A stretch of 64,000 nucleotides of DNA from a virus (IMGVR_UViG_3300029983_000009:64001-128000), one strand, 5' to 3'; counted from the first letter of the stretch, positions 3,638 through 63,116 are shown. Translations and numbers: made by a program. Notes: generated by a model not told the origin, from the letters alone.

Positions 3638-3914
3638 ATTATATAGAGAAGATGTATTAATTGCATTAGATGATTGGGTTAAATATTCAATTAATGGTAT
3701 GTCTTATCATTTTAATAAAGGTTCTAAATATAAAATTTTATCTATATTTATTGACTGTGAATACCCATATTATATTGAATCAGAAAAAACTAACAGAAAA
3801 TATGAAGTTAAATTTTGTAGTGATTGCTCATTAGATGATGTTGAAATAACTCAGAACTTTGATTATATAACATATCAAAGAAAGAATAAATTGATAAAAT
3901 TGAATAAATTATAA
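3630..3914 (+). CDS. hypothetical protein, paralog 3 of triplet, RKxKL tail
   Basis: Paralogy with 3109 and 3380. Confidence 0.8.
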   Translation: MIKLYREDVLIALDDWVKYSINGMSYHFNKGSKYKILSIFIDCEYPYYIESEKTNRKYEVKFCSDCSLDDVEITQNFDYITYQRKNKLIKLNKL

Positions 3915-4208
3915 GTTGAATTTATTTATATTATTTTTATATTTAACAACATTCTTATCTTTATCAAATGCCAATATATCTTCTATATAAACATTCCATC
4001 CATTAGGATGATTTTCATCATAAAAATCAATCATGTATGCTGAGCCACTATAATAATTTATTATTTTATATGCATTATCAGTGAATATTTTTCTATAATG
4101 ATCACCTATCTCTGGATCACTAAAATTTAAATTTTTTGTGTTCAGAACAACATAATCGCCAATTCTTGGTTCATCATTATTATTTTCAAATTTTTTTAAG
4201 TATTTCAT
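3909..4208 (-). CDS. cassette protein, GDYV/SH3-like
   Basis: MKYLKKFE...IGDYVV...NKFNL; close paralog of 4205. Confidence 0.85.
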   Translation of the reverse strand: MKYLKKFENNNDEPRIGDYVVLNTKNLNFSDPEIGDHYRKIFTDNAYKIINYYSGSAYMIDFYDENHPNGWNVYIEDILAFDKDKNVVKYKNNINKFNL

Positions 4209-4543
4209 AAGTTAAATTTATTTGCTATATTTTTATATTTAACAACTTCTTCATCTTTATCATAAAATAGTATATCCTCATAATAGATATCCCATCCATC
4301 AGGATGAGTTTTATCATAAAAATTAATTGTATATACTGAAGATGGGAATTTACTTGTATATTTTGGAGAGTATTCACTATTATCACCAATTATTTTATAT
4401 ACATTATTAGTAAATATTCTTATATAATTTTTATTTTTATATGAGTTAGGATCACTAAATTTTAAATTTTTTACATTCAGTATAACATAATCACCAATTT
4501 CTGGTATTGTTTCTTTATTTTCAAATGTCTTTATATATTTCAT
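4205..4543 (-). CDS. cassette protein, GDYV/SH3-like
   Basis: MKYIKTFE...IGDYVI...NKFNL. Confidence 0.85.
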   Translation of the reverse strand: MKYIKTFENKETIPEIGDYVILNVKNLKFSDPNSYKNKNYIRIFTNNVYKIIGDNSEYSPKYTSKFPSSVYTINFYDKTHPDGWDIYYEDILFYDKDEEVVKYKNIANKFNL

Positions 4544-4866
4544 AAGTTAAATTTTTTTGCTGATAGTATTTTTTCCATTTCATTTTTATCTCCAAAATAT
4601 AAAATATCATTCATTTCAAATCTCAGCATATCATTATCAACACCGTCATAAAATAATTTTTTCAAATTTGAAGGAATTTTGTTATATTTTACAAAAACAC
4701 CTCCATTGTATATATCATAAATTTTACCAATTGAATTGTTTATATATTCATTTAATAATTCATCTAAATCAGAATGAAAATATTTCATCTTTTTAATATT
4801 CATAATAACATAATCACCAACAATTGGGTTATTTTCAGTAGCTTCAAATTGTTTCAAATGTTTCAT
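4540..4866 (-). CDS. cassette protein, GDYV/SH3-like
   Basis: MKHLKQFE...VGDYVI...KKFNL. Confidence 0.85.
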   Translation of the reverse strand: MKHLKQFEATENNPIVGDYVIMNIKKMKYFHSDLDELLNEYINNSIGKIYDIYNGGVFVKYNKIPSNLKKLFYDGVDNDMLRFEMNDILYFGDKNEMEKILSAKKFNL

Positions 4867-5156
4867 ATGTTATATTTTTTTGATTGTAATAATATTTCTA
4901 ATTCTTCTTTATTTTTTGAAATATGTTTTATCTCAGATACATCTAAATACCAATTATCATCAATATGGTTTTCTAATTTAAATTTAATGATATATAAAAT
5001 CTTCCCTATTTTTCTTTGTCTCGTTCCAATTATTTGAAATATATTATTATTAATTTTATCATTAATAACAGCATTAAGAGTTTCTACATTAGGAATTATA
5101 TAGTCACCTACGTCTGGAGTATTTTCTATATCTTCAAATTTTTTCAAGTACTTCAT
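4863..5156 (-). CDS. cassette protein, GDYV/SH3-like
   Basis: MKYLKKFE...VGDYII...KKYNI. Confidence 0.85.
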   Translation of the reverse strand: MKYLKKFEDIENTPDVGDYIIPNVETLNAVINDKINNNIFQIIGTRQRKIGKILYIIKFKLENHIDDNWYLDVSEIKHISKNKEELEILLQSKKYNI

Positions 5157-5464
5157 AAGTTAAATTTATTTGTTTCTGATTTAGTCTTACAATAATCTAT
5201 TTCTGATTTAGTCATTTTTCTTGAAATAAAATATATATTACCAGTTATTTTTTGCTTAGTGATTAATGTTTCAAATGTAATAACTATGTTATCTTTATCT
5301 TCATTATTATGATTCTCCAATAGAGTTATTTCTATTATTTTGACAAATAAATTATCTGGTATTTTTTCTACTCTCTCCACATAATCAGGAATTATTTTTA
5401 TTTTAACATAATCTCCTATATTAATATTTAGTTTGTTAATTTCAAATGATTTTATATACTTCAT
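5153..5464 (-). CDS. cassette protein, GDYV/SH3-like
   Basis: MKYIKSFE...IGDYVK...NKFNL. Confidence 0.85.
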   Translation of the reverse strand: MKYIKSFEINKLNINIGDYVKIKIIPDYVERVEKIPDNLFVKIIEITLLENHNNEDKDNIVITFETLITKQKITGNIYFISRKMTKSEIDYCKTKSETNKFNL

Positions 5465-5826
5465 AGGTTGAATTTATTTGAATTATTTTGAATTTCTATT
5501 TTATTTTTCAATTCATCTTTTGTTTTTGCTAATAAGTTTATATCTTCTAAATAAAATATTTGATTGTAGCCATAATTTTTATCATATTGAAAAAATTCTC
5601 TTACATTTTTTGGAATATCAAAACCATATATAACCTTTATTTTGTTGTTATTAAAAGTAGTATATATTTGTCCAGGACAATTAAGAAAAAAATCTTTTAA
5701 CAAATCAAGATATTTTTCATCGTAGTGATTTTTCAAATGATTAATATAATTTTTACTTACTATTGACACATAATCTCCTACTTCAGTCTCATTAGTATCA
5801 TTTTCAAATTTCTTTATATATTTCAT
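5461..5826 (-). CDS. cassette protein, GDYV/SH3-like
   Basis: MKYIKKFE...VGDYVS...NKFNL. Confidence 0.85.
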   Translation of the reverse strand: MKYIKKFENDTNETEVGDYVSIVSKNYINHLKNHYDEKYLDLLKDFFLNCPGQIYTTFNNNKIKVIYGFDIPKNVREFFQYDKNYGYNQIFYLEDINLLAKTKDELKNKIEIQNNSNKFNL

Positions 5827-6128
5827 ATGTTAAATTTGTTTGCATCAATTTCATAATCTTCAACAGTTATTTCTATTACAGTTTTATTTACATTTATTTT
5901 ATCTGACCAACTCCAACTGTTATAGATTAATGAGTGATTTAAATATATAAATTTAAAATGTGGGTTATTCCAATATTGAGAGTGCGTATTATTACTCCAA
6001 CTTGATATTTCATCTGTTGACATACCTATTTTAGTTAGTGCAATAAAATATACTTCTAACGGGTATGATGGAATTTTATATTGAATTTTTTTAATATTTA
6101 TCTTTTCAAATTTTTTTATATATTTCAT
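5823..6128 (-). CDS. cassette protein, YFIALTKIGM family
   Basis: MKYIKKFE...NKFNI; near-duplicate of 6125. Confidence 0.85.
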   Translation of the reverse strand: MKYIKKFEKINIKKIQYKIPSYPLEVYFIALTKIGMSTDEISSWSNNTHSQYWNNPHFKFIYLNHSLIYNSWSWSDKINVNKTVIEITVEDYEIDANKFNI

Positions 6129-6439
6129 ATGTTAAATTTCTTTGCATCAATTTCATAATCGTCAACAGTTATTTCTCTTACAGTTTGATTTACATTTATT
6201 CTATTTGACCAACTCCATTGATATTTTTTAGTATAATCATTGTATATGTGATCTAAATATATAAATTTAAAATTTGAATTATTCCAATATTGAGCTAATT
6301 TATTACTACTCCAATTTGATATTTCATCTTGTGACATACCAATTTTAGTTAGTGCAATAAAATATGCTTCTAACGGATATGCTGGAATTTTATAATGAAT
6401 TGTATTATTTATTTTTTCAAAATTTTTTATATATTTCAT
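6125..6439 (-). CDS. cassette protein, YFIALTKIGM family
   Basis: MKYIKNFE...KKFNI. Confidence 0.85.
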   Translation of the reverse strand: MKYIKNFEKINNTIHYKIPAYPLEAYFIALTKIGMSQDEISNWSSNKLAQYWNNSNFKFIYLDHIYNDYTKKYQWSWSNRINVNQTVREITVDDYEIDAKKFNI

Positions 6440-6771
6440 AGGTTAAATTTATTTGTATTAATAGAAATTTCTAATTCTGATTTATCTTTTGAATATCTAA
6501 CTATATCTGCTCCTTTCATAGTAAATGCAGATTCATTTTTATATCTCTTGAAATTATTTAAATTATCTGGAATATGATCATATTCAACTATATAATATGT
6601 AGCACCTGGTATTAATTTATAATCAATATCAATAAGTTTTCCTACCTTATTTTTAATGAAATCATTAAATTCTTTATATGTATTATTATATTTACCATCA
6701 TACCATTCACATATTACATAATCACCAATTTCTAATTTATTATTTATTTCAAATGTTTTTAAATATTTCAT
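6436..6771 (-). CDS. cassette protein, GDYV/SH3-like (array head)
   Basis: MKYLKTFE...IGDYVI...NKFNL; TAATATATA just upstream. Confidence 0.85.
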   Translation of the reverse strand: MKYLKTFEINNKLEIGDYVICEWYDGKYNNTYKEFNDFIKNKVGKLIDIDYKLIPGATYYIVEYDHIPDNLNNFKRYKNESAFTMKGADIVRYSKDKSELEISINTNKFNL

Positions 6772-6823
6772 ACTTTATATATTAAAAAAACATAATTAAA
6801 TTCTTCAATTGAAATAATTATAT

Positions 6824-6831
6824 TATTTTTG
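6824..6831 (+). promoter_or_regulatory. Bacteroidota-type -7 element
   Basis: TATTTTTG upstream of ORF 6857. Confidence 0.5.
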
Positions 6832-6856
6832 CATATAATATAAAAAAATAAAAACT

Positions 6857-7381
6857 ATGGAATTTAAAGTTGTTGATTATAAAATATATAAAATTCATAC
6901 TACACGTGAAAAATATCGTGAGGCCGCAATTAAATATGATTATGCATCAAAAAATAAAAATTGGGCTGATGATTTTGAAGGAATGATTGAAAAAAAATAT
7001 TCTGGTTACAGTGATCAAATAGATTCATTTAGTTCTAATAAATATCTAATGAAAATTGTATTTGTTGGTGATAAATTTGATATAAATAAAGACTTTTATG
7101 ATAATTGTAAACTTCCTTATTATAGTCACTTGCATAGTGATTTTAAAGAATATGGAGATAATCTAACAGATGAAATTATACAATCTCATTTTGAAGTTGT
7201 TAAACCAAATAAACCAACTACATATCCTAAATATAACAATGAAGTTAAATTCAATTATGATAAAAAAAATGTTATAATTGAGAAAATCTACTTTGATGGT
7301 TATGATTGGCAATATAAATTGAAAAATATTGGTCATGTTTATGATTATATTTCTGAAACTAATATCAATAAATATAATTGA
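6857..7381 (+). CDS. hypothetical protein
   Basis: 174-aa ORF. Confidence 0.8.
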   Translation: MEFKVVDYKIYKIHTTREKYREAAIKYDYASKNKNWADDFEGMIEKKYSGYSDQIDSFSSNKYLMKIVFVGDKFDINKDFYDNCKLPYYSHLHSDFKEYGDNLTDEIIQSHFEVVKPNKPTTYPKYNNEVKFNYDKKNVIIEKIYFDGYDWQYKLKNIGHVYDYISETNINKYN

Positions 7382-7464
7382 AAGGTGAAAAATGTATAAA
7401 TGTTATTTTATTTTTTGGTTAGTAACAAAAAATTTAGTATTTTTGTCAAATAATTAAAATTAGT

Positions 7465-7656
7465 ATGACAAAAATTGAAGAAACAGATAATAAAATATTA
7501 CTTTCTTATTATTATAAAAGAGTATTAGATGTATTTAATTCAGATTTTATTAATAAAGATTTTATTGATAGGGCAATTAAATTAAGAGATGCAATAGAAA
7601 ATGACATAGGAATAGTACACACAGAAGAGTATTATGAGATTATGAAAAATATATAA
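7465..7656 (+). CDS. hypothetical protein
   Basis: 63-aa ORF after TATTTTTG at 7438-7445. Confidence 0.65.
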   Translation: MTKIEETDNKILLSYYYKRVLDVFNSDFINKDFIDRAIKLRDAIENDIGIVHTEEYYEIMKNI

Positions 7657-7665
7657 AAATAAAAT

Positions 7666-8289
7666 ATGTTACCAGAATATATCATACAAATATTAGCTTC
7701 ACTATTCGCTGGATCTATATTAGGAATAGAACGTGGATTTCATGGAAAACCTGCAGGATTTAAGACAATGATATTAATTTGTGTTAGTTCATGTGTATTT
7801 ACCATATTATCAGTTAATTTGGTGAGTGGAGATAGAATAGCATCAAACATAGTTACTGGAATTGGTTTTATTGGTGCTGGGGTTGTTTTTAAAGAAGGTG
7901 GAAATATTCGTGGTATAACTTCTGCTGCAATCATTTGGATGGCATCCGCAATAGGTATGTGCATAGGGTTTCAAAATTATACATTAGCAGCCTTTGTTCT
8001 ATTGGTCGTATTATTAGTTATGATTGTATTTTTTAAGTTTGAGAATATATTTGATACTTTTCATCATTCAAAAATTTATAATATTCATTTCATATCATCT
8101 GAGTATTCTTTAGAAGAATTAGAGAAAGAAATGTCAATTCTAAATATTGAATACAAAAGAAATAAAATAGGAAAAAGAAACAATGTTATTAATGTTGATT
8201 ATAATATATTAATTTATCCTATTGAAAATTTAAATAAAATTGATAACTTTTTGATTAATAATATCTATATAAATGGATTTGAAGTATAA
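7666..8289 (+). CDS. MgtC/SapB family membrane protein
   Basis: G.ER...KPAGFKT, DRIASNIVTGIGFIGAGVVF, GITSAAIIW.ASAIGM..G. Confidence 0.92.
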   Translation: MLPEYIIQILASLFAGSILGIERGFHGKPAGFKTMILICVSSCVFTILSVNLVSGDRIASNIVTGIGFIGAGVVFKEGGNIRGITSAAIIWMASAIGMCIGFQNYTLAAFVLLVVLLVMIVFFKFENIFDTFHHSKIYNIHFISSEYSLEELEKEMSILNIEYKRNKIGKRNNVINVDYNILIYPIENLNKIDNFLINNIYINGFEV

Positions 8290-8303
8290 TAAAATTAAAT
8301 AAT

Positions 8304-8981
8304 ATGTGGGAAATTTTTAAAAGTAATGCACGTAAAGAACGTGATAGAATTGAATCTGAAAGAGTTAAACAAGAAGGTATTGATAAAACACTTGAAGAAG
8401 AAAGGGTGTATTCTATTTATGAACTTGAAAGTAAACGTCTAAATGATAAATTAGATGAAGAAAGATCTAAGTATAATGAAAAAGAAAAAATAAATTTTGA
8501 AAAATCAAATGGAACATGTCCAAAATGTTCATCTACTAAAGTAGTTGATAAAATAAGCCAATTGAAAGGCGAAATTAATGGTTCATCATCAATTAGTGGT
8601 AGTCTTGGAGGTATGTTTGGATCAGGTTCAATTCATGGTAGTATAGACACACTTGAAATAAATAAATGTACTGAATGTAGTAATGAATGGAAAAAAGTAC
8701 CATATAATAGTAATGGCGCACAATCATGGGAAAATAAAATCCGATATTTAAGACTGTCAATAAATAATTTAGTTGAGAAACCAGATGGAAAAGAGCCTTA
8801 TTATATTAATTGTGCTAGGGATTTTTGGTCTGGTACTAAGTTAGATACTCTATTATTATTAATTAAAAATGAACATATTGGTACATGTTTTTGGTCAGAT
8901 AGTTATCTTAAAGAAATTATGATTGAATTAATTAAAGGTAAAGAAGATATCTTAATTAATAAACTTGGATTCATAAAATAA
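8304..8981 (+). CDS. hypothetical coiled-coil/zinc-ribbon protein
   Basis: CPKC and CTEC pairs; Gly/Ser-rich segment. Confidence 0.75.
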   Translation: MWEIFKSNARKERDRIESERVKQEGIDKTLEEERVYSIYELESKRLNDKLDEERSKYNEKEKINFEKSNGTCPKCSSTKVVDKISQLKGEINGSSSISGSLGGMFGSGSIHGSIDTLEINKCTECSNEWKKVPYNSNGAQSWENKIRYLRLSINNLVEKPDGKEPYYINCARDFWSGTKLDTLLLLIKNEHIGTCFWSDSYLKEIMIELIKGKEDILINKLGFIK

Positions 8982-9039
8982 ATATTATATTTTTTTGTTA
9001 AATATTGTAAATATAATTTTTTGTATAAATAATTATAAT

Positions 9040-9047
9040 TATCTTTG
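9040..9047 (+). promoter_or_regulatory. Bacteroidota-type -7 element
   Basis: TATCTTTG upstream of ORF 9071. Confidence 0.6.
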
Positions 9048-9070
9048 CACATAATTTAAAAATAATAAAA

Positions 9071-9304
9071 ATGAAAACCAAAATAATCATCTCTGAAATC
9101 TTGAAATCTAAGGGTATTACACCTACTTCAAAGTATCATGATTATGATTATCTGTATAAAACAATTATAGAGGTAATTAAAACTGCTTGTGATGATACAG
9201 TTGAATTATGTAATAATAGTTCTGAAGTAGAAGTATTAGGATATAATGATTATAAGGTTAATGAACAATCAATTTTAAATGTAAAAAACAAAATCACAAA
9301 ATAA
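9071..9304 (+). CDS. hypothetical protein
   Basis: 77-aa ORF. Confidence 0.7.
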   Translation: MKTKIIISEILKSKGITPTSKYHDYDYLYKTIIEVIKTACDDTVELCNNSSEVEVLGYNDYKVNEQSILNVKNKITK

Positions 9305-9310
9305 AAAATC

Positions 9311-9643
9311 ATGAATATATTTAAATTGTTTAAATCTGTACCAAGTCTTGATAATAACTTGATGAATACAGCTAAAGATTTCTTGTCTAGATTAGATATA
9401 AAAAGTATTGATACTGTACAGGGATATATTTTAAAAAATGATAAAATAGTTATGCTAAATTATTATTTTTCTTCTGAATGGTGCAGCGGAGTTAAACTAA
9501 TATTCAAAGTCGTTGATAACAAATTGAAATTTAGTAAAATTGGTAAATTTGGGTGGAGAGATGAAAAATATCATACAGAAGATAATCAAAAAAAATTAGA
9601 TGATTTTATATTAGATATTCAAAAACATGATTTCGAAATTTAA
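9311..9643 (+). CDS. hypothetical protein
   Basis: 110-aa ORF. Confidence 0.75.
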   Translation: MNIFKLFKSVPSLDNNLMNTAKDFLSRLDIKSIDTVQGYILKNDKIVMLNYYFSSEWCSGVKLIFKVVDNKLKFSKIGKFGWRDEKYHTEDNQKKLDDFILDIQKHDFEI

Positions 9644-9689
9644 ACACAAATAAATATTAATACTAAAACAATTAAAAATTTTTAAAAAA

Positions 9690-10229
9690 ATGAAGAAAAT
9701 TATTATTCTCACTGTTGTAGGAATTGCTGCACTAATCGCAATTTCAGTATTTTTTACTTATGTATCAGTTAATAACAGCTCTATTCAGAAGTATAAAGCT
9801 TGTGAAGCACAGAACGGTAACATTGAAGCAGTTCATAATGAAATGTGGACAATTCTTAAAGATCAAGCAAAAATACCTGCAGCATATGCAGACAAGTTTG
9901 ATAAGATTTATACTGATATGATTGGTGGTCGTTATTCAAAAGGAGATGGTACATTAATGAAATGGATTCAAGAATCTAATCCTAAATTTGATAATACTTT
10001 ATATGTAACTTTAATGAATAGTGTTGAAATTCAACGTACCAACTTCGCTAATCAGCAAAAACGAATGATAGATATGAAACGTGATTATGATACATATATA
10101 ACTCAAATTCCAGCAAAATGGTTTGTGACAAAAGAAAACTCTAAACAATTTGTTTATATACCAATTTCTTGTACAGAAACAAAAGATGTTATGAAAACTC
10201 GAGTCGATGATAATGAGATTTCACTATAA
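9690..10229 (+). CDS. LemA-like N-anchored membrane protein
   Basis: N-terminal TM, helical body, C-terminal YDTYITQIPAKWF resembling LemA YN..i..fP..lf. Confidence 0.6.
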   Translation: MKKIIILTVVGIAALIAISVFFTYVSVNNSSIQKYKACEAQNGNIEAVHNEMWTILKDQAKIPAAYADKFDKIYTDMIGGRYSKGDGTLMKWIQESNPKFDNTLYVTLMNSVEIQRTNFANQQKRMIDMKRDYDTYITQIPAKWFVTKENSKQFVYIPISCTETKDVMKTRVDDNEISL

Positions 10230-10249
10230 TAAAAAATAAGAAATTTAAT

Positions 10250-10282
10250 AAAAGCTGTATATGTTATATACAGCTTTTTTTT
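10250..10282 (+). terminator. intrinsic terminator
   Basis: AAAGCTGTATA-tgt-TATACAGCTTT followed by T run. Confidence 0.8.
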
Positions 10283-10326
10283 GTTAAAAATTATTAATCA
10301 TATTTTATTATATGACTAATTAGTTG

Positions 10327-10334
10327 TATCTTTG
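10327..10334 (+). promoter_or_regulatory. Bacteroidota-type -7 element
   Basis: TATCTTTG upstream of ORF 10358. Confidence 0.6.
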
Positions 10335-10357
10335 TACATAATTTAAAAATAAATAAT

Positions 10358-10777
10358 ATGGATAAATCTGGATTTTTAACTGTAGATTATGATGATTCAT
10401 TACAATCATCATATGTAGCTCTTATCTTATATTATGGAGATAAGAAAGAAATGAGATTTGACACTGGTAATCCTTTGATTGATTGGTATGACTTTTGTAA
10501 AATTGTATTTGATGGTGAGGAATCAGAAAAATATAATATGTCAGGAGTTGGGTATTCATCTTCTGTTGATCACTGGTTTATGGATGGTAATGAATATATC
10601 GAAAAGTATTTGAAATTAAATGATAATGATGAATATGATTTTATTTTAACTGAAGAATTAAATAATTTGTCATTATCAGAATTAAATTCTCTTAAAAGAT
10701 GCGTAATACAAAAAGATATGAAATCTTTTCAAGAGTTAAAAAAATATTATTCAGAACATAAAAATAAATATATTTAA
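10358..10777 (+). CDS. hypothetical protein
   Basis: 139-aa ORF. Confidence 0.8.
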   Translation: MDKSGFLTVDYDDSLQSSYVALILYYGDKKEMRFDTGNPLIDWYDFCKIVFDGEESEKYNMSGVGYSSSVDHWFMDGNEYIEKYLKLNDNDEYDFILTEELNNLSLSELNSLKRCVIQKDMKSFQELKKYYSEHKNKYI

Positions 10778-10795
10778 TACTAAAAATCTAAAAAT

Positions 10796-12010
10796 ATGAC
10801 GACAATCATTTATTTTATTCCAATTGTAATTGCTATTTTTATCTTTATTTTTTTCAGAACAAAAGTTGTTTGGTGGGAATATCTAATAGTTATTGTACCA
10901 ACCTTATTGCTAACACTAATTATTAGTACAGTGATGATTCATAGTAGAACGCAAGCAACAGAGTACTTTGGTGATTATGTTACTGAGGCACATGATTATG
11001 AATTTTGGGACGAATGGATTACAGAAACTTGCTCAAGAACAGTAGATGATGGTAATGGTAAATCTCATAGTGAATCATATGATTGTTCTCATAGAGATGA
11101 CCATCCTGAACATTGGACACAAGTATTATCAAATGGTAAGGAACAAGAAATATCAAAAGATGAATATTATAAATTATTAAAATCCTGGAATGCTCGTAAA
11201 ATATTTGTAGATATGAACAGAGATTTTTATAATAATGATGGTAATATGTATAATATTAAATGGGACAATAATATTTATAGCTCAAAAACTATCACAACCG
11301 AACACTCATATACAAATAAAATTAATAGTTCATATTCTATATTTGGATTCTCAAAAATATCAAAGAAAGTAGCAAAAGAAGATGGATTATATGATTATCC
11401 AAATTTATATTCAAATAATGATGGTTCTAATGGTATGTTCTCAAGTGGAAGTGGTACTAATGATCAATCACCATTTTTAGGCTACAAACCAACTTTAAAA
11501 GAATTAAAATCTTGGCAATATATTAATGGATATTATGGTCAAAAAAATCAAATAAGAGTATTTTTAATGTTCTATTATAATAAATCTCGTTCAATAGTAA
11601 AAGAGCAACAAAGTTATTGGTTAGGTGGTAATAAGAATGAACTTGTTCTGTGTTTTGGACTTGATTCTATATCTAAAAATATACAATGGGTAGATGCATT
11701 CTCTTGGAGTGATAAACCAACATTTGAAGTTAATTTTAGAAGTTACTATAATGGTAAAACTAAATTGAATTTAGAAGAATTAGCTAATTGGACAGAAAGT
11801 AATATACCAAAATATTGGCAACGAAAACAATTTAAAGATTTTGAATATATTGATGTTGATTTGAGTAGCGCACAGCAAATTTGGTTGTTTATAATTATAC
11901 TTATTGTATCATTAGGATTATCTGTATATGTAATATTAAATAACTATTATTATGATAAAAACGGCCGTGTTGTAGATGAAAATAATAAATGGAACAATTA
12001 TAGGTATTAA
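10796..12010 (+). CDS. membrane protein (2 N-terminal TM, 1 C-terminal TM) with large soluble domain
   Basis: Hydrophobic segments; WLGGNKNELV motif. Confidence 0.8.
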   Translation: MTTIIYFIPIVIAIFIFIFFRTKVVWWEYLIVIVPTLLLTLIISTVMIHSRTQATEYFGDYVTEAHDYEFWDEWITETCSRTVDDGNGKSHSESYDCSHRDDHPEHWTQVLSNGKEQEISKDEYYKLLKSWNARKIFVDMNRDFYNNDGNMYNIKWDNNIYSSKTITTEHSYTNKINSSYSIFGFSKISKKVAKEDGLYDYPNLYSNNDGSNGMFSSGSGTNDQSPFLGYKPTLKELKSWQYINGYYGQKNQIRVFLMFYYNKSRSIVKEQQSYWLGGNKNELVLCFGLDSISKNIQWVDAFSWSDKPTFEVNFRSYYNGKTKLNLEELANWTESNIPKYWQRKQFKDFEYIDVDLSSAQQIWLFIIILIVSLGLSVYVILNNYYYDKNGRVVDENNKWNNYRY

Positions 12011-12013: not shown

Positions 12014-12952
12014 ATGAAAGAAGAAAAAAGATTAGTTATGACTTGTGGATTACCTGCTGCAGGTAAATCAGGTATTGTTGAATCTTATGTTGATTATAAT
12101 TACACCTTATTATCAAGAGATATTGAAGGTGGTACATTAATTTCACTTAATAAGAAACTTGAAGCACTGATGATAGATGGTGTTGATATTGTATTAGATG
12201 GTACATATACAACTAAGTTATCTCGTTCTGAAGTTATTGAATTAGCAAAAAAATATGACTACTATATAATTTGCCTTTATTTCACCACAAAGATTGAAGA
12301 TTGTATGTTCAATCAGGTAACAAGAATGATAAGAAAATATGATAGATTATTTACAGAATTAAGTGATTATTCTAAAGTTAATGATCCACATATGTTTCCT
12401 GTAGCTGCACTTTATAAAATGAATAAACATTTTGAAACACCAGAATTATCAGAAGGTATTGATGATATAGAAAAAATAGATTTCAAAAGATATCCATCAG
12501 AGTATAAAAATAAAGCAATCTTCTTTGATTATGACGGCACTTTGAGATTAACGAAAAGTGGAGGACATTATCCAACAGATATTAGTGATATTGAAATAAT
12601 TCCTGGTAGAACAGAAAAACTTTTAGAATTACAGAGTCAAGGTTATATATTACTTGGTGTTTCAAATCAAAGTGGTATAGCAAAAGGATTATTAACTCAT
12701 GAGACTGCAATAGAATGTTTTGAAAAGACAAATGAAATGTTAGGAGTTAATATTGATTATAAATATTGCGGGCACTCTGTTCCTCCAATCACTTGCTATT
12801 GTAGAAAGCCAGGAGTTGGCTTTGGAGTTGAATTCATTGAGAAATATAAACTTGATCCATCACAATGTATAATGGTTGGAGATTTGACAAGTGATAAAAC
12901 ATTCGCTAAACGATGTGGCTTTAAATATGTTGATGCCTCTAATTTTTTCTAA
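12014..12952 (+). CDS. P-loop kinase (AAA_33/PNK-like) fused to HAD-IIIA phosphatase (GmhB/PNKP-like)
   Basis: Walker A GLPAAGKS, IVLDGT, DYDGT, SNQSGIAKG, CGHS...CYCRKP, MVGD..SD. Confidence 0.88.
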   Translation: MKEEKRLVMTCGLPAAGKSGIVESYVDYNYTLLSRDIEGGTLISLNKKLEALMIDGVDIVLDGTYTTKLSRSEVIELAKKYDYYIICLYFTTKIEDCMFNQVTRMIRKYDRLFTELSDYSKVNDPHMFPVAALYKMNKHFETPELSEGIDDIEKIDFKRYPSEYKNKAIFFDYDGTLRLTKSGGHYPTDISDIEIIPGRTEKLLELQSQGYILLGVSNQSGIAKGLLTHETAIECFEKTNEMLGVNIDYKYCGHSVPPITCYCRKPGVGFGVEFIEKYKLDPSQCIMVGDLTSDKTFAKRCGFKYVDASNFF

Positions 12953-15503: not shown

Positions 15504-15866
15504 TTATAAATTGAATTTTTGAACATTCAACATTTGTTCTAAATAATCTTTATTTTTGTGATAAAATTTAACTTGAGAATATTTAAAATCTTTTGAATGT
15601 ATGAATTTATCTCCATCTTTATAATAGCCAAACCATGTTCCAATTTCTTTATCTTCTTTATATGTCATATCTTCATAAATTACTCTAATATCATTATGAT
15701 CATAATCCCATGTTTTAGAAACTACTTTACCTATATGATTATTTATATAATTTATAAATTCATTAACTTTAAATCCAGTGTAAATATCACTTGTTGCATT
15801 AATTAATACATAATCACCCTCTTTTGGTACGTCTTTATTATTTTCAAATGTTTTTATGTGCTTCAT
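15504..15866 (-). CDS. cassette protein, GDYV/SH3-like
   Basis: MKHIKTFE...EGDYVL...QKFNL. Confidence 0.85.
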   Translation of the reverse strand: MKHIKTFENNKDVPKEGDYVLINATSDIYTGFKVNEFINYINNHIGKVVSKTWDYDHNDIRVIYEDMTYKEDKEIGTWFGYYKDGDKFIHSKDFKYSQVKFYHKNKDYLEQMLNVQKFNL

Positions 15867-16354
15867 ATGTTGAATTTATTTGCGGTTTTTTTCATTAAAT
15901 ATTCTTTATATCTTTCAGGATAGGTTTCTATTATATGTTGTAATATTATAGGATTTGATGTATCAATTTTACTAAATATATCTTCACCCTTTAAATTTTC
16001 AATTTTCATATCAATTCCAGATTTCATTAATAAATCAATAATATTATCAATATTTTTTTTTAATATTTTATATGTATAATTACCATTATGAGTAATAAAA
16101 AATAAGCAAGTTTCATTAAATCTATTTGTTAAATTAACATCAGCATTATTTTCAATTAATAATTTAATTATACTGTAATTTAATTTTAATACTGCTTTAA
16201 TTAACGGTGTCCTACTTTTACTAGCATCAAAACAATTTACATCAGCACCATCTAATATCAATTCTCTTACTTTCTGTGTTGATGCTTTATTTTCTGAATA
16301 TTCCAATAATTCAGAATTTAATTCTTTCTGAGTATATGTAACTATATGTTTCAT
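15863..16354 (-). CDS. cassette protein, ankyrin repeats
   Basis: GADVN..RTPLIKAV, NADVNLTN; NKFNI. Confidence 0.85.
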   Translation of the reverse strand: MKHIVTYTQKELNSELLEYSENKASTQKVRELILDGADVNCFDASKSRTPLIKAVLKLNYSIIKLLIENNADVNLTNRFNETCLFFITHNGNYTYKILKKNIDNIIDLLMKSGIDMKIENLKGEDIFSKIDTSNPIILQHIIETYPERYKEYLMKKTANKFNI

Positions 16355-20803: not shown

Positions 20804-20869
20804 ATATAATTGTAGTGTTTTGTTGTTTATATTATATATAAAAAAATAAGATTGTTATTTTATTTATAT

Positions 20870-21505: not shown

Positions 21506-21564
21506 GATAATTTTTTTCAAATATATATTAATATATATGGTGTTAAAAAATATAAATATAAATT

Positions 21565-39784: not shown

Positions 39785-39786
39785 AT

Positions 39787-43809: not shown

Positions 43810-43904
43810 ACTAAAAAATTAATTTCAACTATATATAAAATCTATAAGGTATTTTTTTAACTTGATTAAAATAAATTAATATTAATTTATTAATATATAA
43901 ATAT

Positions 43905-56948: not shown

Positions 56949-57506
56949 ATGATTAAAAAATTTAAAGAATTCGAAAACTATGATTTAAGAGGAGAATATG
57001 GTGATATTTTTGAACCTATGAAAGAAGAAGATATGCCTCAAGATGTACCAGGATTTGAAAGCGGTACAATAGATCCAGAGGATGATGAAGTATATCACAA
57101 TTTACATTCTGACTTCAATGAACTTAGTGAAAAAGAACTATATGAGAAATTCAAAATAGTAACAAAGGAAAGAAATTTCAAAGAAACAAAAAATGAAATA
57201 AAAATAAATATATCAAAATTGTATCATGATTTTATTATGTCAATATATAATCCTAATAAGCATTATTCAAAATTTCTAAGAGAAGAAATTATAGGCAAAT
57301 ATATATCAGATGGAGTAATTGATTTTATGACTGATATAAAATATTATGGTATAATAAAAGGATTAAACTTTCAATATGTTAATGAAAGTGCTCTTGTTTC
57401 TGCAGAATTAGTTGGAATAGATGAGTTAAAATACGAAAATTCAATGTGTAATAATATTATTACTATTGATAAACTAAAGTCTAATGCAAATAAATTTAAT
57501 TTATGA
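56949..57506 (+). CDS. cassette protein (array 8), acidic N-terminal part
   Basis: MIKKFKEFE...NKFNL. Confidence 0.85.
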   Translation: MIKKFKEFENYDLRGEYGDIFEPMKEEDMPQDVPGFESGTIDPEDDEVYHNLHSDFNELSEKELYEKFKIVTKERNFKETKNEIKINISKLYHDFIMSIYNPNKHYSKFLREEIIGKYISDGVIDFMTDIKYYGIIKGLNFQYVNESALVSAELVGIDELKYENSMCNNIITIDKLKSNANKFNL

Positions 57507-57796
57507 AACATATCAAGAAATTTGAAATAAATGACATATCAGATGATGAGATTCAAAAATATAGAAAAAATGATTATGTTAAATTAAAATCATCAGGATT
57601 TGTTGATAAATTACCAAGATATGCTAAAATAACATCTATTGATCCACCTACACTTAATAGCTGTATTTATTATTTTTGTGTGACTCCTGATAATAATAAG
57701 CTTTGGATGCCTGATGATAGAATTGAAAGAGAATTAGATAAATATGAAATAGAAAAATATGAATTTGATTTAATAGCAAATAAATTTAATTTATGA
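57503..57796 (+). CDS. cassette protein (array 8), SH3-like
   Basis: MKHIKKFE...YRKNDYVKL...NKFNL. Confidence 0.85.
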   Translation: MKHIKKFEINDISDDEIQKYRKNDYVKLKSSGFVDKLPRYAKITSIDPPTLNSCIYYFCVTPDNNKLWMPDDRIERELDKYEIEKYEFDLIANKFNL

Positions 57797-58146: not shown

Positions 58147-58806
58147 TTATAAATTAAATTTGTTGATAGATTTTTTTATCTTTAAATAATCTTCAACTTC
58201 TTTTTTACTTTTAGAATATAATTTAATATCTTTAATTCTAAATTCATGTTTTCCTAAATCTTTAATAATAGGATTTGTATCATTATAAAACTGATTTATT
58301 TCTCCTATCATTTCTTTAGGTATATCTCTATATTCAATTACATATGCATTTTTCTCGTTTTGGCTAGTAACTCTTCCAATGTTATTATTTATATACTCAT
58401 CAAAAATATTGTCATCATCACTATATTTATTACTTTTTATTTCGCACAATACATAATCTCCTATCATTGGTTCATCTGGAATCTTCCATTCAGATTTCAA
58501 TGTAAACATATATGCTTTTTTCATAGTTATTATTTCATCAGTTTTAATATCTTGAACATCTACATAAGCATTATATAATAAATTAGTTGTTACATTCCTA
58601 TAACCTCTTCCACTCCAATATATTTGTATAACTTTATATTCTCTACCATATTTAATTTCTTTTTCATTACCATATTCTAATTCACCATCCTGAGTTATTC
58701 TACCTGTATAGTCACGATATGCGTCGAATTTTGTAGAACAAATCACAATATCATTTAATGAATAAACAATATAATCATTACTTTCAAATTTTTTTATATA
58801 TTTCAT
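58147..58806 (-). CDS. cassette protein with two SH3-like payloads
   Basis: YSLNDIVIC domain followed by EPMIGDYVLC domain; NKFNL. Confidence 0.85.
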   Translation of the reverse strand: MKYIKKFESNDYIVYSLNDIVICSTKFDAYRDYTGRITQDGELEYGNEKEIKYGREYKVIQIYWSGRGYRNVTTNLLYNAYVDVQDIKTDEIITMKKAYMFTLKSEWKIPDEPMIGDYVLCEIKSNKYSDDDNIFDEYINNNIGRVTSQNEKNAYVIEYRDIPKEMIGEINQFYNDTNPIIKDLGKHEFRIKDIKLYSKSKKEVEDYLKIKKSINKFNL

Positions 58807-58809: not shown

Positions 58810-58998
58810 TTAAAATTTTGTTTGAAATGATACCATATCTTTAGTTTTATTAGACATTACATCAACTGGTTCAAGTGTTCCTCCACCATTTTTCTTTTTC
58901 TTTTTCTTTTTCTCCTCATTTTTATATGATTTGTGTTGTGGTTTATATGGCACATATTCAACTCCAACGTATTCTTCAAAAGTTTTTAAGTTTTTCAT
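58810..58998 (-). CDS. small basic protein with CTS-like N-terminus
   Basis: MKNLKTFEE...EEKKKKKKKNGGG. Confidence 0.75.
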   Translation of the reverse strand: MKNLKTFEEYVGVEYVPYKPQHKSYKNEEKKKKKKKNGGGTLEPVDVMSNKTKDMVSFQTKF

Positions 58999-59447
58999 AT
59001 ATTAAATTTATTTGTATTGTATTTTAATTCAAAATCATTTTTTGATATTTTTTTAATTAATATATTAATATCTTCATTTATAATATATCTTGAAAATTTT
59101 ATGAAATCGTCAATTATTTTCAATCCTTCTATTTCTTTAAAATAATCAATAACAAAATTTGACAACGAATCATAGTCATCAATTATCTTAATACTTATAA
59201 TATAACTAGTTGTAGAATAATCTATATTTTGAGTTAACTCTATTTCAAATAAATCTTGAAATCTTGAGCAACCATATTCATCAGTTATTAAATTTATTGA
59301 TCTACAACGTAATGTATATTCTTTAATTTTATTATATTCATTATATATAGTTGAACATCTTACTCCAATATCGCTGAACATTTTTGATAAATGTTCTATT
59401 AAATTTTTAAGTTCAGTTATATTTTCATACAACTTTAAATATTTCAT
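58995..59447 (-). CDS. cassette protein, unknown payload
   Basis: MKYLKLYE...NKFNI. Confidence 0.85.
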   Translation of the reverse strand: MKYLKLYENITELKNLIEHLSKMFSDIGVRCSTIYNEYNKIKEYTLRCRSINLITDEYGCSRFQDLFEIELTQNIDYSTTSYIISIKIIDDYDSLSNFVIDYFKEIEGLKIIDDFIKFSRYIINEDINILIKKISKNDFELKYNTNKFNI

Positions 59448-59746
59448 ATATTGAATTTTTTTGCATTATATTCTGTTTCAGATATAAAAACAGATGGATG
59501 CCAATTTACTGTTTCTTTTCCAGTTTCTACATTAACTACATTAACTTTATTTAAATTAATTTCTTTTACAATATATTTTTCTCCTTTTGTTATTAAATCA
59601 AGTAACATAGGATTGAATTTTTCATTATCTTTATTATGCATAGATGGTAAGCCTTTAACAGTTTCTACACAAATAACAGTATCTCCTACTTTATATTTGT
59701 ATTTTTTATCTATATCAATTTCCTCATATGATTTTAAAAATTTCAT
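59444..59746 (-). CDS. cassette protein, SH3-like
   Basis: Start corrected to MKFLKSYEE at 59746; YKVGDTVIC; KKFNI. Confidence 0.85.
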   Translation of the reverse strand: MKFLKSYEEIDIDKKYKYKVGDTVICVETVKGLPSMHNKDNEKFNPMLLDLITKGEKYIVKEINLNKVNVVNVETGKETVNWHPSVFISETEYNAKKFNI

Positions 59747-59747
59747 A

Positions 59748-60146
59748 TTATATGTTGAATTTTTTAGTTCTAATATAAAATAAAATATTTTCATCTTCAA
59801 TATTTACATTATAAAAATTTATTGTGACTCCTTTTACGTTTTGATCATTAGATGCTTTTAAATATCCATAACTAAAAACATAGTTACCTATTCTTAATGC
59901 AAAATCATCACCTTTATTAATATAAAATTCATCCTGTACAATTTTTTCACGCATTTCTATATTATCAGATTTTTTATAATAATGTTCATTTTGAGTTTCT
60001 GAAATAATAAATCCAATTGCATCAGAATTATCTTTCAAATCAATTAATTTTTGAATTGATTTGAACATACCAAAAAAATCACAGAATCCAAAAAGATCAA
60101 TTGATATTACTTGTTCTGTTGATTCATATTTTTTTAAATATTTCAT
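59748..60146 (-). CDS. cassette protein, unknown payload
   Basis: MKYLKKYE...KKFNI. Confidence 0.85.
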   Translation of the reverse strand: MKYLKKYESTEQVISIDLFGFCDFFGMFKSIQKLIDLKDNSDAIGFIISETQNEHYYKKSDNIEMREKIVQDEFYINKGDDFALRIGNYVFSYGYLKASNDQNVKGVTINFYNVNIEDENILFYIRTKKFNI

Positions 60147-60515
60147 TTATATATTGTATTTGTTTGATTTTGATTTCATTTTATAATCTTCTATGTGAGG
60201 AATTACTATATGACTAGCTATATATGTTTCACTAAATGAAATATCACCTACTTGTCCATGATCACCTTTTGTAACTTCATCAATTTCCTCAATTGTTATT
60301 TCATTATTTTCTAACGCTTTTAATAATGATTCACCATTTTTTATATATTTACTTGATAATAATTCTCTACCACCGAATTGTTCTATCCAGTTAAATGCTG
60401 TTTGAAATTCATTATGTCCTAATGAATCATCCAAATTAGAATTAGGATGATTTTCACTATCAGCCCAATCTTTTATTCTGGTACTATAATCAGTAAATTC
60501 TTTTAGATATTTCAT
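60147..60515 (-). CDS. cassette protein, unknown payload
   Basis: MKYLKEF...NKYNI. Confidence 0.85.
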   Translation of the reverse strand: MKYLKEFTDYSTRIKDWADSENHPNSNLDDSLGHNEFQTAFNWIEQFGGRELLSSKYIKNGESLLKALENNEITIEEIDEVTKGDHGQVGDISFSETYIASHIVIPHIEDYKMKSKSNKYNI

Positions 60516-60530
60516 CTTAATTTTTTGTTT

Positions 60531-60857
60531 TTATATATTAAATTTATTTGTTATATTATATAATTTATATTTTTTTATTTCTTCTTTTGTTGCTAATCTG
60601 ATATTCTCTGGATAAAAATCATGAATATCATTTTTAAATACCCATTTTAAATCTGAAGGAATATTTGTATATTTTACATTATATGCAGTATATGGTTTAT
60701 CATTATATCCAAAGTTTTTGCTTATGCCAATAATTTGACCTATGTTATTTTCCAAGAAATTCTTAATATCAGGCTTAAATGGAACATATTCTGATATTAC
60801 ATATTGTCCTACTTTAAAAACTTTTTTTCTACTTTCAAATGTTTTAATGTATTTCAT
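60531..60857 (-). CDS. cassette protein, GDYV/SH3-like
   Basis: MKYIKTFE...VGQYVI...NNIGQI...NKFNI. Confidence 0.85.
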   Translation of the reverse strand: MKYIKTFESRKKVFKVGQYVISEYVPFKPDIKNFLENNIGQIIGISKNFGYNDKPYTAYNVKYTNIPSDLKWVFKNDIHDFYPENIRLATKEEIKKYKLYNITNKFNI

Positions 60858-61174
60858 ATATTAAATTTATTTGCCTTTAGTTTCATATTAAAAAATTCAA
60901 TCTCTTCTGGAGTCATTAGTCTTTCTATCTCATCAAATTTAATGAATAATCCTTCATCATCTTCTCCAGGGGTATATGTTTTAACAATATAAGGGTATGG
61001 AAGATCATCATAATATTCTCTATTGGTGACAATTCCAAATTTGTTAGGTAATTCATCTATTTTATTATCTATTTTATTATTTTTTGTGAATTTTTCTATA
61101 TCTAATACAACATAATCTCCATCATTATATTTTAATGGCTCAAATTGTTTTTCAAATGTTTTTATATACTTCAT
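60854..61174 (-). CDS. cassette protein, GDYV/SH3-like
   Basis: MKYIKTFE...DGDYVVLD...NKFNI. Confidence 0.85.
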   Translation of the reverse strand: MKYIKTFEKQFEPLKYNDGDYVVLDIEKFTKNNKIDNKIDELPNKFGIVTNREYYDDLPYPYIVKTYTPGEDDEGLFIKFDEIERLMTPEEIEFFNMKLKANKFNI

Positions 61175-61596
61175 ACATTAAATTTATTTGTATTATCAAG
61201 AAATATTTTTTCAGAATCATCAAGAACTAATTTATTGATATCTATTTTTAGCTCACCTTTGAAATCATAAATATTTGCGTTTAACTGATTTTTATATATT
61301 CTGAATTTATCATCTTCATTATGTAATATCGAATAAGAAAATCCAAACAAACTAAAATATAAATATACTCCTATAATATCATCATTAATATCATCATTAA
61401 TATCTTTATCTCTAAATATTCTATTTATTGTTCTATTTAATTCTATCTCATGATCATTACTAGGAAAATATTTCTTAAATTTTGAAATAACTGACATTAT
61501 ATTAGAAACATCTCCATAAATTATCCAATATGATCCTGCTATAATTTCAATGTCATCAGAATTAGTTATTTTTTCGTATTTCTTTATATATTTCAT
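61171..61596 (-). CDS. cassette protein, unknown payload
   Basis: MKYIKKYE...NKFNV. Confidence 0.85.
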   Translation of the reverse strand: MKYIKKYEKITNSDDIEIIAGSYWIIYGDVSNIMSVISKFKKYFPSNDHEIELNRTINRIFRDKDINDDINDDIIGVYLYFSLFGFSYSILHNEDDKFRIYKNQLNANIYDFKGELKIDINKLVLDDSEKIFLDNTNKFNV

Positions 61597-62021
61597 ATGT
61601 TAAATTTATTTACATCAGTAATCAAATTATATTTAGAGTCAAAATCTTCATTTGATATTTGATTAATAATATCATCAATATTACCAATTATATCATATAC
61701 TATTTTAGTTGTACTTTCAAAATTATACTTTAATCCTTTTATAGTTTTGAAATATTGTAACATATATTTATAGAAAATTTCATTTTTAAATATATGAATA
61801 GATAAGTGCTTACCAAGAATTGTATCAACTGATATATCAAATAATGCTTCACCAGAAGTAGAAAATTCAGTTTCATATTTTCTATTGTCATAATAATTTG
61901 AATATTCTATACCATAATAAGAAAAAATCTTTGTTAAATGACTAATTAATTTTTTAACATCGGTTACATCACTATCATCAAAAAAATCAGTTATTTTTTC
62001 AAATGTTTTTATATGCTTCAT
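61593..62021 (-). CDS. cassette protein, unknown payload
   Basis: MKHIKTFE...YFKTIKGL...NKFNI. Confidence 0.85.
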   Translation of the reverse strand: MKHIKTFEKITDFFDDSDVTDVKKLISHLTKIFSYYGIEYSNYYDNRKYETEFSTSGEALFDISVDTILGKHLSIHIFKNEIFYKYMLQYFKTIKGLKYNFESTTKIVYDIIGNIDDIINQISNEDFDSKYNLITDVNKFNI

Positions 62022-62458
62022 TATACATTATATTTTTTTGCACTAGCAAACATAGTCAATTTATCTTTATCTATTTGATCAATAACGTCATTAATATCTC
62101 CTGTAATATAAAATTCATATTCATCTAATATTTGTTTATTAAATCTAATTCCTTTTATTGTTTTTAAATACTCAGGAATTTCTGATACCATAATATTATT
62201 ACTATTATTAAAAGAATCTAATACTATATATTCATCATCTCCTGTCATTATAGAAAATAATATTTTATCTGTATTCTTAACATAAAATGAAAACATGACA
62301 TCATCTCCTTCACTCATATCAGAACACTCGTATCCAAATTGAGTTATAAAATTTCTAATGAATTTTGCAAATATAGGTAATTTATTTTTAAATTCTTCTA
62401 GATCTTCTTCAGTATAATATTCTTCTTCGAATATTTTATAATCTTTAATGTATTTCAT
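62021..62458 (-). CDS. cassette protein, unknown payload
   Basis: MKYIKDYKIFEE...YLKTIKGI...KKYNV. Confidence 0.85.
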   Translation of the reverse strand: MKYIKDYKIFEEEYYTEEDLEEFKNKLPIFAKFIRNFITQFGYECSDMSEGDDVMFSFYVKNTDKILFSIMTGDDEYIVLDSFNNSNNIMVSEIPEYLKTIKGIRFNKQILDEYEFYITGDINDVIDQIDKDKLTMFASAKKYNV

Positions 62459-62787
62459 ATATTATATTTATTTGTCATCAATACTTTTTCTAAATCTTCT
62501 TTATTTTTAGACCAATATTTTATATCTTCAATATTTAATGATATCGCTTCTTCATCATATATCTTAAATTTATAAAAATCTAACTCTTTTGGTATATTAT
62601 CATATATTATTGTATATGATAAATCATCTGCATATAAAGGTTTAAATATATTATATAATTTACCAATTCTATTTTTAGTGAATTCATTTAAATCAGTAAG
62701 AAAATCATTTGATTCTGCTATCACATAATCACCAACTTCTGGATCATTCACATTCATTTTTTCATATATTCTAAATTTTGTAATCAT
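62455..62787 (-). CDS. cassette protein, GDYV/SH3-like
   Basis: MITKFRIYE...VGDYVI...NKYNI. Confidence 0.85.
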   Translation of the reverse strand: MITKFRIYEKMNVNDPEVGDYVIAESNDFLTDLNEFTKNRIGKLYNIFKPLYADDLSYTIIYDNIPKELDFYKFKIYDEEAISLNIEDIKYWSKNKEDLEKVLMTNKYNI

Positions 62788-63116
62788 AAGTTAAATTTAT
62801 TTGCTTGTAAAATAGTTTCTAATTCTTCTTTGTTTTTAGTCCATTTTATCAAATCCTCTTTTTTGAATCTAAAAGATGTATCATTATTCATAGACTTATA
62901 TAATTTTAACTCATCTGGTATATTATTATATTTTACTAAAAAAGATGTTTCATCGTATTTATCAGTTTCAATTTTAATTAATTCTCCTATATTATTTGTA
63001 GCAAAAATATTAGCAGGATGTTCATCCTCAGCATGTTTCCATTTTGCAAATATGTAATCACCAACTTCTGGTTCAATTGAATTTTCATATTCCTCATACA
63101 ATTTTAAATGTGTCAC
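62784..63116 (-). CDS. cassette protein, GDYV/SH3-like
   Basis: MTHLKLYEE...VGDYIF...NKFNL. Confidence 0.85.
   Translation of the reverse strand: MTHLKLYEEYENSIEPEVGDYIFAKWKHAEDEHPANIFATNNIGELIKIETDKYDETSFLVKYNNIPDELKLYKSMNNDTSFRFKKEDLIKWTKNKEELETILQANKFNL

Follow-up and report, generated by a model that had tools for sequence, protein, structure and literature searches.

Two terminal peptides shared by a hypervariable repertoire of small proteins on a virus contig from peat metagenomes

Bases 64001-128000 of the 168,159-bp IMG/VR virus record IMGVR_UViG_3300029983_000009 (hereafter the window, a stretch of 64,000 nucleotides in which the positions below are counted) carry 65 small genes whose products share one short peptide at the start and another at the end around middles of many kinds. 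We refer to the genes as cassettes and to the two peptides as the N-tag and the C-tag. The tags are almost certainly functional peptides giving many unrelated proteins a common fate, and we consider it probable that they act as address or docking labels. CheckV estimates the completeness of the record at 24%, the GC content is 21-28%, and window DNA was found in many peat metagenome runs, all of which were peat DNA and none RNA. The source is probably an uncultivated, very AT-rich, T4-related huge phage of the ~700-kb class from peat. Among the relatives referred to below are L001, a 326-kb relative with ~80% DNA identity that belongs to the sister lineage, and G011, a 96-kb relative with 20 K[FY]N-tagged open reading frames (ORFs). 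Full-text literature searches found no published account of a dual-tagged system of this kind.

The original prediction, made from the sequence of the window, had described about 65 ORFs sharing two terminal peptides, most of them overlapping the neighboring gene by ATGA. A stop-to-stop scan of the window for frames ending in K[FY]N[LIVM] returned exactly 65, every one within 3909-63116, and the ATGA overlap with the next gene was present in 44 of the 65, with TAATG in one and with TAA followed by 0-16 nt or an array end in the others. Both peptides were also as described, the C-tag ending all 65 frames and a leader of the type M[KR][YHF][ILVM][KERV] opening 55 of them. The remaining 10 have variant starts (MITKF[KR][IL][YF]E, MKTF.QF, MKIQKF, MEIKKF or MIKKF), mostly close to the common leader, or an uncertain start (TTG for 49918-50322 and GTG for 62784-63116). 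Together the 65 genes make up 26,340 bp of coding sequence, which is 44% of 3909-63116. When runs were defined by inter-gene gaps of at most 40 nt, the genes fell into 12 runs of 9, 9, 3, 10, 1, 9, 2, 2, 6, 2, 1 and 11 genes:

3909-6771, minus strand: array of nine cassettes, mostly GDYV SH3-like; 5823-6439 (two cassettes) is missing from the sister lineage.
15504-19155, minus strand: array of nine cassettes, 4 nt downstream of the operon-heading PPK2-HAD gene (19160-20803, see below).
21565-22582, plus strand: array of three cassettes; 22235-22582 is missing from the sister lineage.
27636-31678, minus strand: array of ten cassettes; the sister lineage lacks 27950-28330, 28775-30023 (three genes) and 31334-31678.
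39814-40323, minus strand: single tagged gene that keeps the C-tag without a downstream gene; terminator-like hairpin at 39770-39813.
40629-43809, minus strand: array of nine cassettes; the 84-aa cassette 41930-42184 is missing from L001, with the breakpoint within a junction repeat.
43905-44923, plus strand: two ankyrin cassettes, of which 44426-44923 was modeled with AlphaFold.
49512-50322, minus strand: two tagged genes; a terminator-like hairpin follows 49512-49913.
50593-54521, minus strand: array of six tagged genes with short TAA spacers, including a 459-aa protein (51463-52842) and a 255-aa ankyrin protein.
56949-57796, plus strand: two cassettes.
58147-58806, minus strand: single tagged gene for a 219-aa SH3-like protein, followed by a terminator-like hairpin.
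58995-63116, minus strand: array of 11 cassettes; the sister lineage lacks ~59068-59693 and has 297 bp inserted at 62046.
41285-41325, minus strand: example of a junction, with K-K-F-N-I codons, the ATGA stop/start overlap and M-K-Y-I-K codons.

The whole 168-kb contig contains 81 tagged ORFs, none of them in its first 64 kb. KFNL (36 ORFs), KFNI (33) and KYNI (6) are the commonest ORF endings contig-wide and the next commonest occurs 4 times; KFNL and KFNI exceed the next-ranking endings ~8- to 9-fold. The two tags go together, the C-tag being found on 59 of the 60 N-tagged ORFs of the contig. The N-tag follows the consensus MK[YH][IL]Kx[FY]E within a leader of ~10-12 residues, with E at position 8 in 57 of the 81 tagged ORFs. 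The C-terminal unit extends over ~14 residues and reads [ED][ED][LYF][EK][LIM]x[LKI][ND][ATS][NK]-K-[FY]-N-[ILV]. For its quantification a position matrix was built on the last 14 residues and compared with 464 other proteins of the phage and its relatives. The cassettes had a median score of +22 bits and the other proteins a maximum of -0.1, with no overlap, and since the scores separate the two groups completely the C-tag is all-or-none and not a product of chance.

Codon usage within the tags bears on the level at which they are maintained. Synonymous variation is higher in the tags than in the gene bodies: at N(-2) AAC is used in 42% versus 12%, at F(-3) TTC in 28% versus 17%, at Y3 TAC in 27% versus 10%, and at H3 CAC in 47% versus 16%. 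The last sense codon is ATA, TTA, CTA or GTA, so that all four first bases occur and the residue is always Ile, Leu or Val. Array-first genes retain the N-tag without an upstream gene, and array-last genes, several of which are followed by terminator-like hairpins, retain K-F-N-L. Since the residues are fixed where synonymous sites vary, and since the genes at array ends keep their tags, the evidence points to selection acting on the tag peptides and not on the tag DNA. The 35-40 bp junction, which the original prediction had put forward as a unit encoding the tail of one gene and the head of the next, is consequently no DNA element of its own; it arises because two protein-level tags, codon bias and the 4-nt ATGA overlap coincide. 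Some codon positions are nevertheless strongly biased. AAA encodes K(-4) in all 81 genes, against an expected 88%, the last sense codon has the form xTA in 79 of 81, even before TAA stops with no ATGA overlap to force it, and Ile ATT is never used as the last sense codon of a tagged gene.

Kinship among the payloads was judged on 82 tag-trimmed middles. The GDYV SH3-like family accounts for 24 of these and ankyrins for 9; there are a few small families, and ~40 middles have no detectable kin. Pfam ankyrin models (Ank_2 and related) matched 8 of 64 window cassettes, with a best E value of 2.9e-24, and a Pfam leucine-rich repeat (LRR) model matched one. A PHROGs search of the cassettes gave matches to the ankyrin payloads only, and for three tagged proteins (459, 169 and 185 aa) the ESM Atlas offered no usable family. 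The claim that the middles are unrelated thus stands for the ~40 without kin and for the distinct ankyrin, LRR and barrel folds, but not within the GDYV family or the ankyrins, which make up 24 and 9 of the 82. One diverged paralogue family as the whole explanation is ruled out, because the ankyrin, LRR and barrel folds are unrelated. The cassette proteins are soluble (no hydrophobic segment) and have a median length of 126 aa.

As the original prediction had proposed, payload structures were modeled. The AlphaFold model of a GDYV cassette is a small barrel (predicted local distance difference test score, pLDDT, 82.6), and the best matches in a Foldseek search of the PDB were chromo/Tudor barrels, weak at E 0.05 and a template-modeling (TM) score of 0.42-0.6. 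The model of the ankyrin cassette 44426-44923 is all-helical (pLDDT 88.4) with a terminal helix at residues 148-163. In the SH3-like and ankyrin models pLDDT is below 50 for residues 1-10 and 1-12, and in both the C-tag is the end of the terminal helix, with its last residues at low confidence. Because a disordered leader and a helix-end C-tag recur in two unrelated models, both tags look like exposed linear motifs on unrelated cores and not like a shared folded domain. Pairing of the N-tag and the C-tag in cis as a clasp was seen in neither model.

Comparison with relatives shows a repertoire that is both conserved in kind and rapidly changing in content. For orthologous cassettes of the window and L001 the ratio of nonsynonymous to synonymous substitution rates (dN/dS) was 0.21-0.42, as against 0.13-0.30 for neighboring enzymes; judged from these alignments the cassettes are real genes under purifying selection. 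A profile search with the GDYV family returned 2631 clusters (50% identity) in 1.84 billion metagenomic proteins, and among 154 sequences of the family that were inspected, mostly top matches, 148 carried the C-tag and 138 the N-tag. The junction DNA pattern was found in at least 98 stretches of IMG/VR contigs. Chained alignments at ~80% DNA identity showed that at least 11 window cassettes (those marked as missing in the list above) are absent from the sister lineage and that at least six sister-only inserts of 252-579 bp are present in six places. Array content therefore differs between relatives and is not invariant. At the cassette indels the breakpoints overlap by 36-63 bp, which places the crossovers in the junction repeats. 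With unrelated payloads between the same two peptides, coupled operons, and gain and loss at the junctions, the idea of a modular, variable repertoire is borne out. Homing-endonuclease-like genes (GIY-YIG and a family starting MI..K..[IV]K.N) were inserted at differing sites in the head modules or arrays of different lineages (L001:5735-6616; L198:8208-9845; L193:6985-8574; L200:3526-5112 and 6697-9878).

The expression context of the arrays was examined through the motif T[TA]ATATATA[AT], which lies upstream of portal, protease-scaffold, capsid and core-like genes in four lineages. The contig has 69 matches, 36 of them within the 12% of its DNA that is non-coding, and of the 31 genes preceded by it, 28 belong to the tag zone and just 3 to the first 64 kb. 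Of eight clear array heads in the window, seven have the exact motif and one differs from it by a single mismatch. The promoter-like cores listed below all conform to this motif:

6775-6784, minus strand: core 4 nt before the first gene of the first array.
20832-20841, minus strand: core.
21529-21538, plus strand: core.
31685-31694, minus strand: core.
43891-43900, plus strand: core.
54547-54556, minus strand: core.
56935-56944, plus strand: core.

In G011, 54 of 62 matches are non-coding, and the motif precedes head genes, the first gene of a baseplate-hub operon and cassettes; in the same fragment it is absent before the UvsX-like, DnaB-like, ribonucleotide reductase and AAA genes. This distribution would fit expression of the arrays together with virion genes. 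Two further observations concern the core. The F-N-I-stop codons (TTT AAT ATA TAA) at the AAT-ATA-TAA junctions of the window spell the promoter-like core TTTAATATATAA, a string that is broken by the C-ending synonymous codons enriched in the tags; the enrichment could reflect selection against internal promoters. At the G011 protease-scaffold and capsid promoters and at two other sites (G011:C1:55942, 79700, 93407 and 95826 in all) the ATATATA core is immediately preceded by a conserved 24-nt element, AAATAGAAAAAAATGACATTTTTT, which is absent from the arrays of the contig.

Head-assembly genes were sought in the same material. The Pfam models Peptidase_S77, Gp23 and PDZ_2 gave no match on the contig (about a quarter of the genome) or on ten large related fragments, all of them fragments. 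Head genes occur on smaller contigs instead: G011 contains a T4-type portal gene (E 1e-62), a gene for a 781-aa protease-scaffold fusion with Peptidase_S80 above the cut-off and Peptidase_S77 just below it, and the start of a Gp23-like capsid gene. A 93%-identical version is found in L198, and the same sample holds G009, a fragment syntenic with the window at ~80% DNA identity. T4-type head genes, as judged on protease, scaffold, portal and Gp23, were found in the tag-bearing G011, L193 and L198. The fusion genes lie at L107:17146-19491 (G011), L198:10001-12373 and L112:10001-12274, and their scaffold-like part holds 9-14 tandem 14-residue repeats, YSEY[IL]AENLDKxIx, after which comes an acidic stretch of low complexity. 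At its core each repeat has [FY][IL]AE, the same residues that close the T4 capsid-targeting sequence MKTYQEFIAE, where gp21 cuts (PMC8442874). More than 2300 members of the fusion family were found, on contigs of up to 735 kb, and since this is the size class of the Mahaphage clade of huge phages, with Bacteroidetes as predicted hosts (PMC7162821), we infer that the window phage belongs to that clade. Mimicry of the C-tag by the scaffold was considered, because the protease-scaffold C-termini of the tag lineage (...FDKL[NS]S) bear a slight likeness to K-hydrophobic-N-x, and was rejected as unsupported, these C-termini ranking 40th-152nd of the 464 non-cassette proteins with negative matrix scores. 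In two lineages (L198:7875-8213 and L193:9604-9912) the portal gene is separated from the protease-scaffold gene by an orthologous C-tagged gene of 102-112 aa, MK[IV]..FNE...[DE]KYNL, which in two others is not present there.

The two tags can be separated. Four complete relatives of 476-676 kb have the protease-scaffold fusion and lack the GDYV/KFNI family, and in each the coding pattern for MK[YH][IL]K was matched 21-30 times, versus 0-3 times for a reversed control. For the complete 640-kb relative ~15 of 20 sampled matches were real ORFs with an MK[YH][IL]Kx[FY]E start and unrelated C-termini, and because the N-tag thus occurs alone the tags are separable. By its distribution among these genomes the N-tag is the older of the two and works without the C-tag, which is an addition of the lineage. 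A second small-protein family, recognized by its basic tail R-K-x-K-[LI]-x-K-[LI], is found mostly in the first 64 kb of the contig, before the window, and is never combined with the MKYIK or KFNI tags.

The mechanism that we propose builds on this anatomy. The phage carries a hypervariable library of small, soluble, mostly acidic proteins, many of them on protein-binding folds (SH3/Tudor-like, ankyrin and LRR), each carrying two portable terminal peptides, a flexible N-leader and an amphipathic C-helix that ends in K-[FY]-N-[ILV]-COOH. Each operon starts at the promoter-like motif, is translationally coupled through ATGA overlaps or short spacers and ends at a hairpin, and whole cassettes are gained and lost by recombination inside the tag-coding junctions. 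The tags would then address the proteins to the assembling prohead for packaging, and possibly injection, as host-directed binders. This destination is the one we favor, and on the genomic evidence we rate it tentatively, as somewhat short of probable. Prohead loading is the best supported destination because of the likeness of the N-tag to the T4 leader, the T4-type head genes, the head-type motif, the hypervariable loci and the precedent of phage SPN3US. A stronger form, in which a two-part address code directs well over a hundred different small binder proteins into the prohead, each at low copy number, so that every virion would be a random sample of a rapidly changing, injected host-directed or counter-defense library and single particles would differ from one another, we regard as doubtful.

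Three known phage systems provide comparisons. The T4/T-even internal proteins IPI, IPII, IPIII and Alt carry the capsid-targeting sequence MKTYQEFIAE (PMC8442874, PMC3012670, PMC5694885), and as with the cassettes a conserved N-leader of ~10 residues, with MK, Tyr, Phe and Glu in the same order, stands on otherwise unrelated small proteins. The likeness extends to a T4-type phage with loci that vary between relatives and to head assembly with portal, protease, scaffold and a Gp23-type protein. The T4 proteins are highly basic (PMC8442874) and amount to a handful, whereas the window has 65 genes in 59 kb for proteins that are mostly acidic; moreover the main leader lacks (L/I)-x-E, the C-tag has no T4 counterpart, and packaging and cleavage of the cassette proteins are putative. 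The 'paralog family B' of SPN3US comprises 20 mostly tandem paralogues, all head proteins and mostly of low copy (PMC5694885). It shares with the cassettes its large size, the tandem arrangement of small genes in a giant phage and a gene number that varies between relatives, but it is one homologous family without short terminal tags, whereas here unrelated folds share the tags. In T4-type hyperplastic regions, promoter/stem-loop (PeSL) cassettes mediate modular shuffling (PMC2839356, PMC4122927), and in both cases small accessory genes are gained, lost and replaced by crossover at short repeats that lie where one gene meets the next. PeSL elements are non-coding and flank each shuffled ORF, unlike the repeats in the window, which are coding, overlap stop and start and are constrained as peptides; the genes abut by ATGA or 0-16 nt, with the motif and hairpins at array ends only and not at each ORF. 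Outside the phages, encapsulin cargo-loading peptides and microcompartment encapsulation peptides are short terminal peptides or amphipathic helices that direct unrelated cargo into a protein shell, and the shells of encapsulins adopt the HK97 capsid fold. The comparison is by analogy alone, with no sequence likeness or shell partner, and the cargo types here are far more numerous.

Several observations weigh against the prohead as destination. The main N-tag ends in x-[FY]-E with a variable P3 residue, mostly K, T or S, and not in the (L/I)-x-E of T4 gp21 sites, which fits only the minor variants MITKF[KR]I[YF]E and ...KI[FY]E. The median isoelectric point (pI) of the cassette proteins is 5.8, with 44 of 81 below 6 and 15 basic. 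The promoter core is AT-rich and palindromic, some of the motif matches are not independent of the tags because K-F-N-I-TAA codons spell the core, and the arrays lack the extra upstream element of the protease and capsid promoters, the strongest among those of head genes. For the lineage of this phage the head module is known from relatives and not from the contig, and tblastn of one cassette against GenBank phages gave no match, so that no cultured relative was found. Finally, more than 80 cargo proteins from a quarter of a genome would be unprecedented. The original suggestion of virion-packaged effectors survives both of the refuting conditions that came with it: content differs between relatives, and the arrays carry a promoter-like motif of head genes that is absent before replication genes. 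Tag-bearing relatives also have T4-type head genes, but the form of the main N-tag, the mostly acidic proteins and a C-tag with no known counterpart do not fit it.

The likeliest of the alternatives is that the tags dock a library of binders onto one common non-virion machine, such as a host or phage protease, a chaperone or another hub, with each cassette bringing a different host target. By analogy this might resemble variable-binder-plus-constant-handle families such as the poxvirus ankyrin/PRANC proteins. Payloads dominated by protein-binding folds, tags that are exposed linear peptides in the models, and acidic, soluble proteins suited to cytoplasmic action all agree with it, and the confinement of the C-tag to the extreme end of the chain points to a free carboxyl group being recognized. 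We nevertheless consider a hub of this kind unlikely, since no candidate was found (the contig has no PDZ_2 domain), the promoter-like motif also precedes head genes, and in a T4-type phage the N-tag is similar to the capsid-targeting sequence of T4.

Less probable again are explanations in which the tags govern lifetime or expression. Degrons or protective caps could give the library a common, timed turnover, and tags that are short, terminal and disordered or exposed in the models would be suitable for this; hydrophobic C-terminal ends are a known class of protease recognition signal, as in ssrA- and Tsp-type signals. Two separable tags and the link to a head-type motif would remain unexplained, and we regard a role in turnover as improbable. 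Selection for expression, with the N-tag codons as an initiation ramp and the C-tag codons as a termination and re-initiation context in coupled arrays, seems to us slightly less probable still. It draws on the ATGA overlaps at 44 of 65 junctions and the nearly fixed xTA and AAA codons of the C-tag, and AAA as second codon is known to favor translation initiation. It does not explain why array-last genes with no downstream gene keep K-F-N-L, why synonymous sites in the tags vary freely, why conservation reaches F7/E8 and the ~14 C-terminal residues forming a helix, or why non-cassette genes of the same phage have no tags and a relative has the N-tag without the C-tag. That the conserved ends are an idle by-product of DNA repeats acting as recombination handles, as the breakpoint overlaps in the junction repeats might suggest, is very improbable, given that the DNA varies at third positions and at the first base of the final codon when the residues stay F/Y, N and I/L/V, and that the tags persist over thousands of diverged metagenomic relatives.

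Nearly half of a 59-kb stretch, together with thousands of metagenomic relatives, thus belongs to one organized system with a readable grammar, made up of two portable tags, payloads of the binder type, promoters of the head type and cassettes that turn over rapidly. Should the tags be capsid-loading signals, no known set of packaged or injected phage proteins would come close to it in size, and nature would provide a two-tag system by which arbitrary proteins can be loaded into a capsid. Should they dock to another hub, the system would be the phage equivalent of those families in large eukaryotic viruses that combine a variable binder with a constant handle. In both cases the tags offer an experimental handle on what a large share of the coding capacity of huge phages is for.

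Apart from the cassettes the window encodes, among others, a PPK2-HAD fusion, a polynucleotide kinase/phosphatase, a microbial PARG, an HD protein, an epimerase and a non-specific endonuclease. The fusion gene (19160-20803, minus strand), which heads a nine-cassette operon, joins polyphosphate kinase 2 to a 'Swiss Army Knife' RNA-repair HAD domain, and near this operon lie the kinase/phosphatase gene (12014-12952) and a gene for a 404-aa protein with no family assigned. A 3-kb block, 8980-11978, is missing from the sister lineage.

The window has two further features. A full-length GOLLD RNA (Rfam RF02032, 274.8 bits, E 2.5e-77) occupies 27120-27542 on the plus strand, ~90 nt from the end of the 27636-31678 cassette array. 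The 2.3-kb stretch 24097-26400 is nearly ORF-free and made of repeated modules, namely six copies of a ~98-nt unit, with an exact 34-nt core in four of them, and a 26-63-nt unit around ACCACCTTGAAGCTTGCAA that occurs five or six times; the stretch has the appearance of small RNA genes set in an array, with a separate promoter for each.

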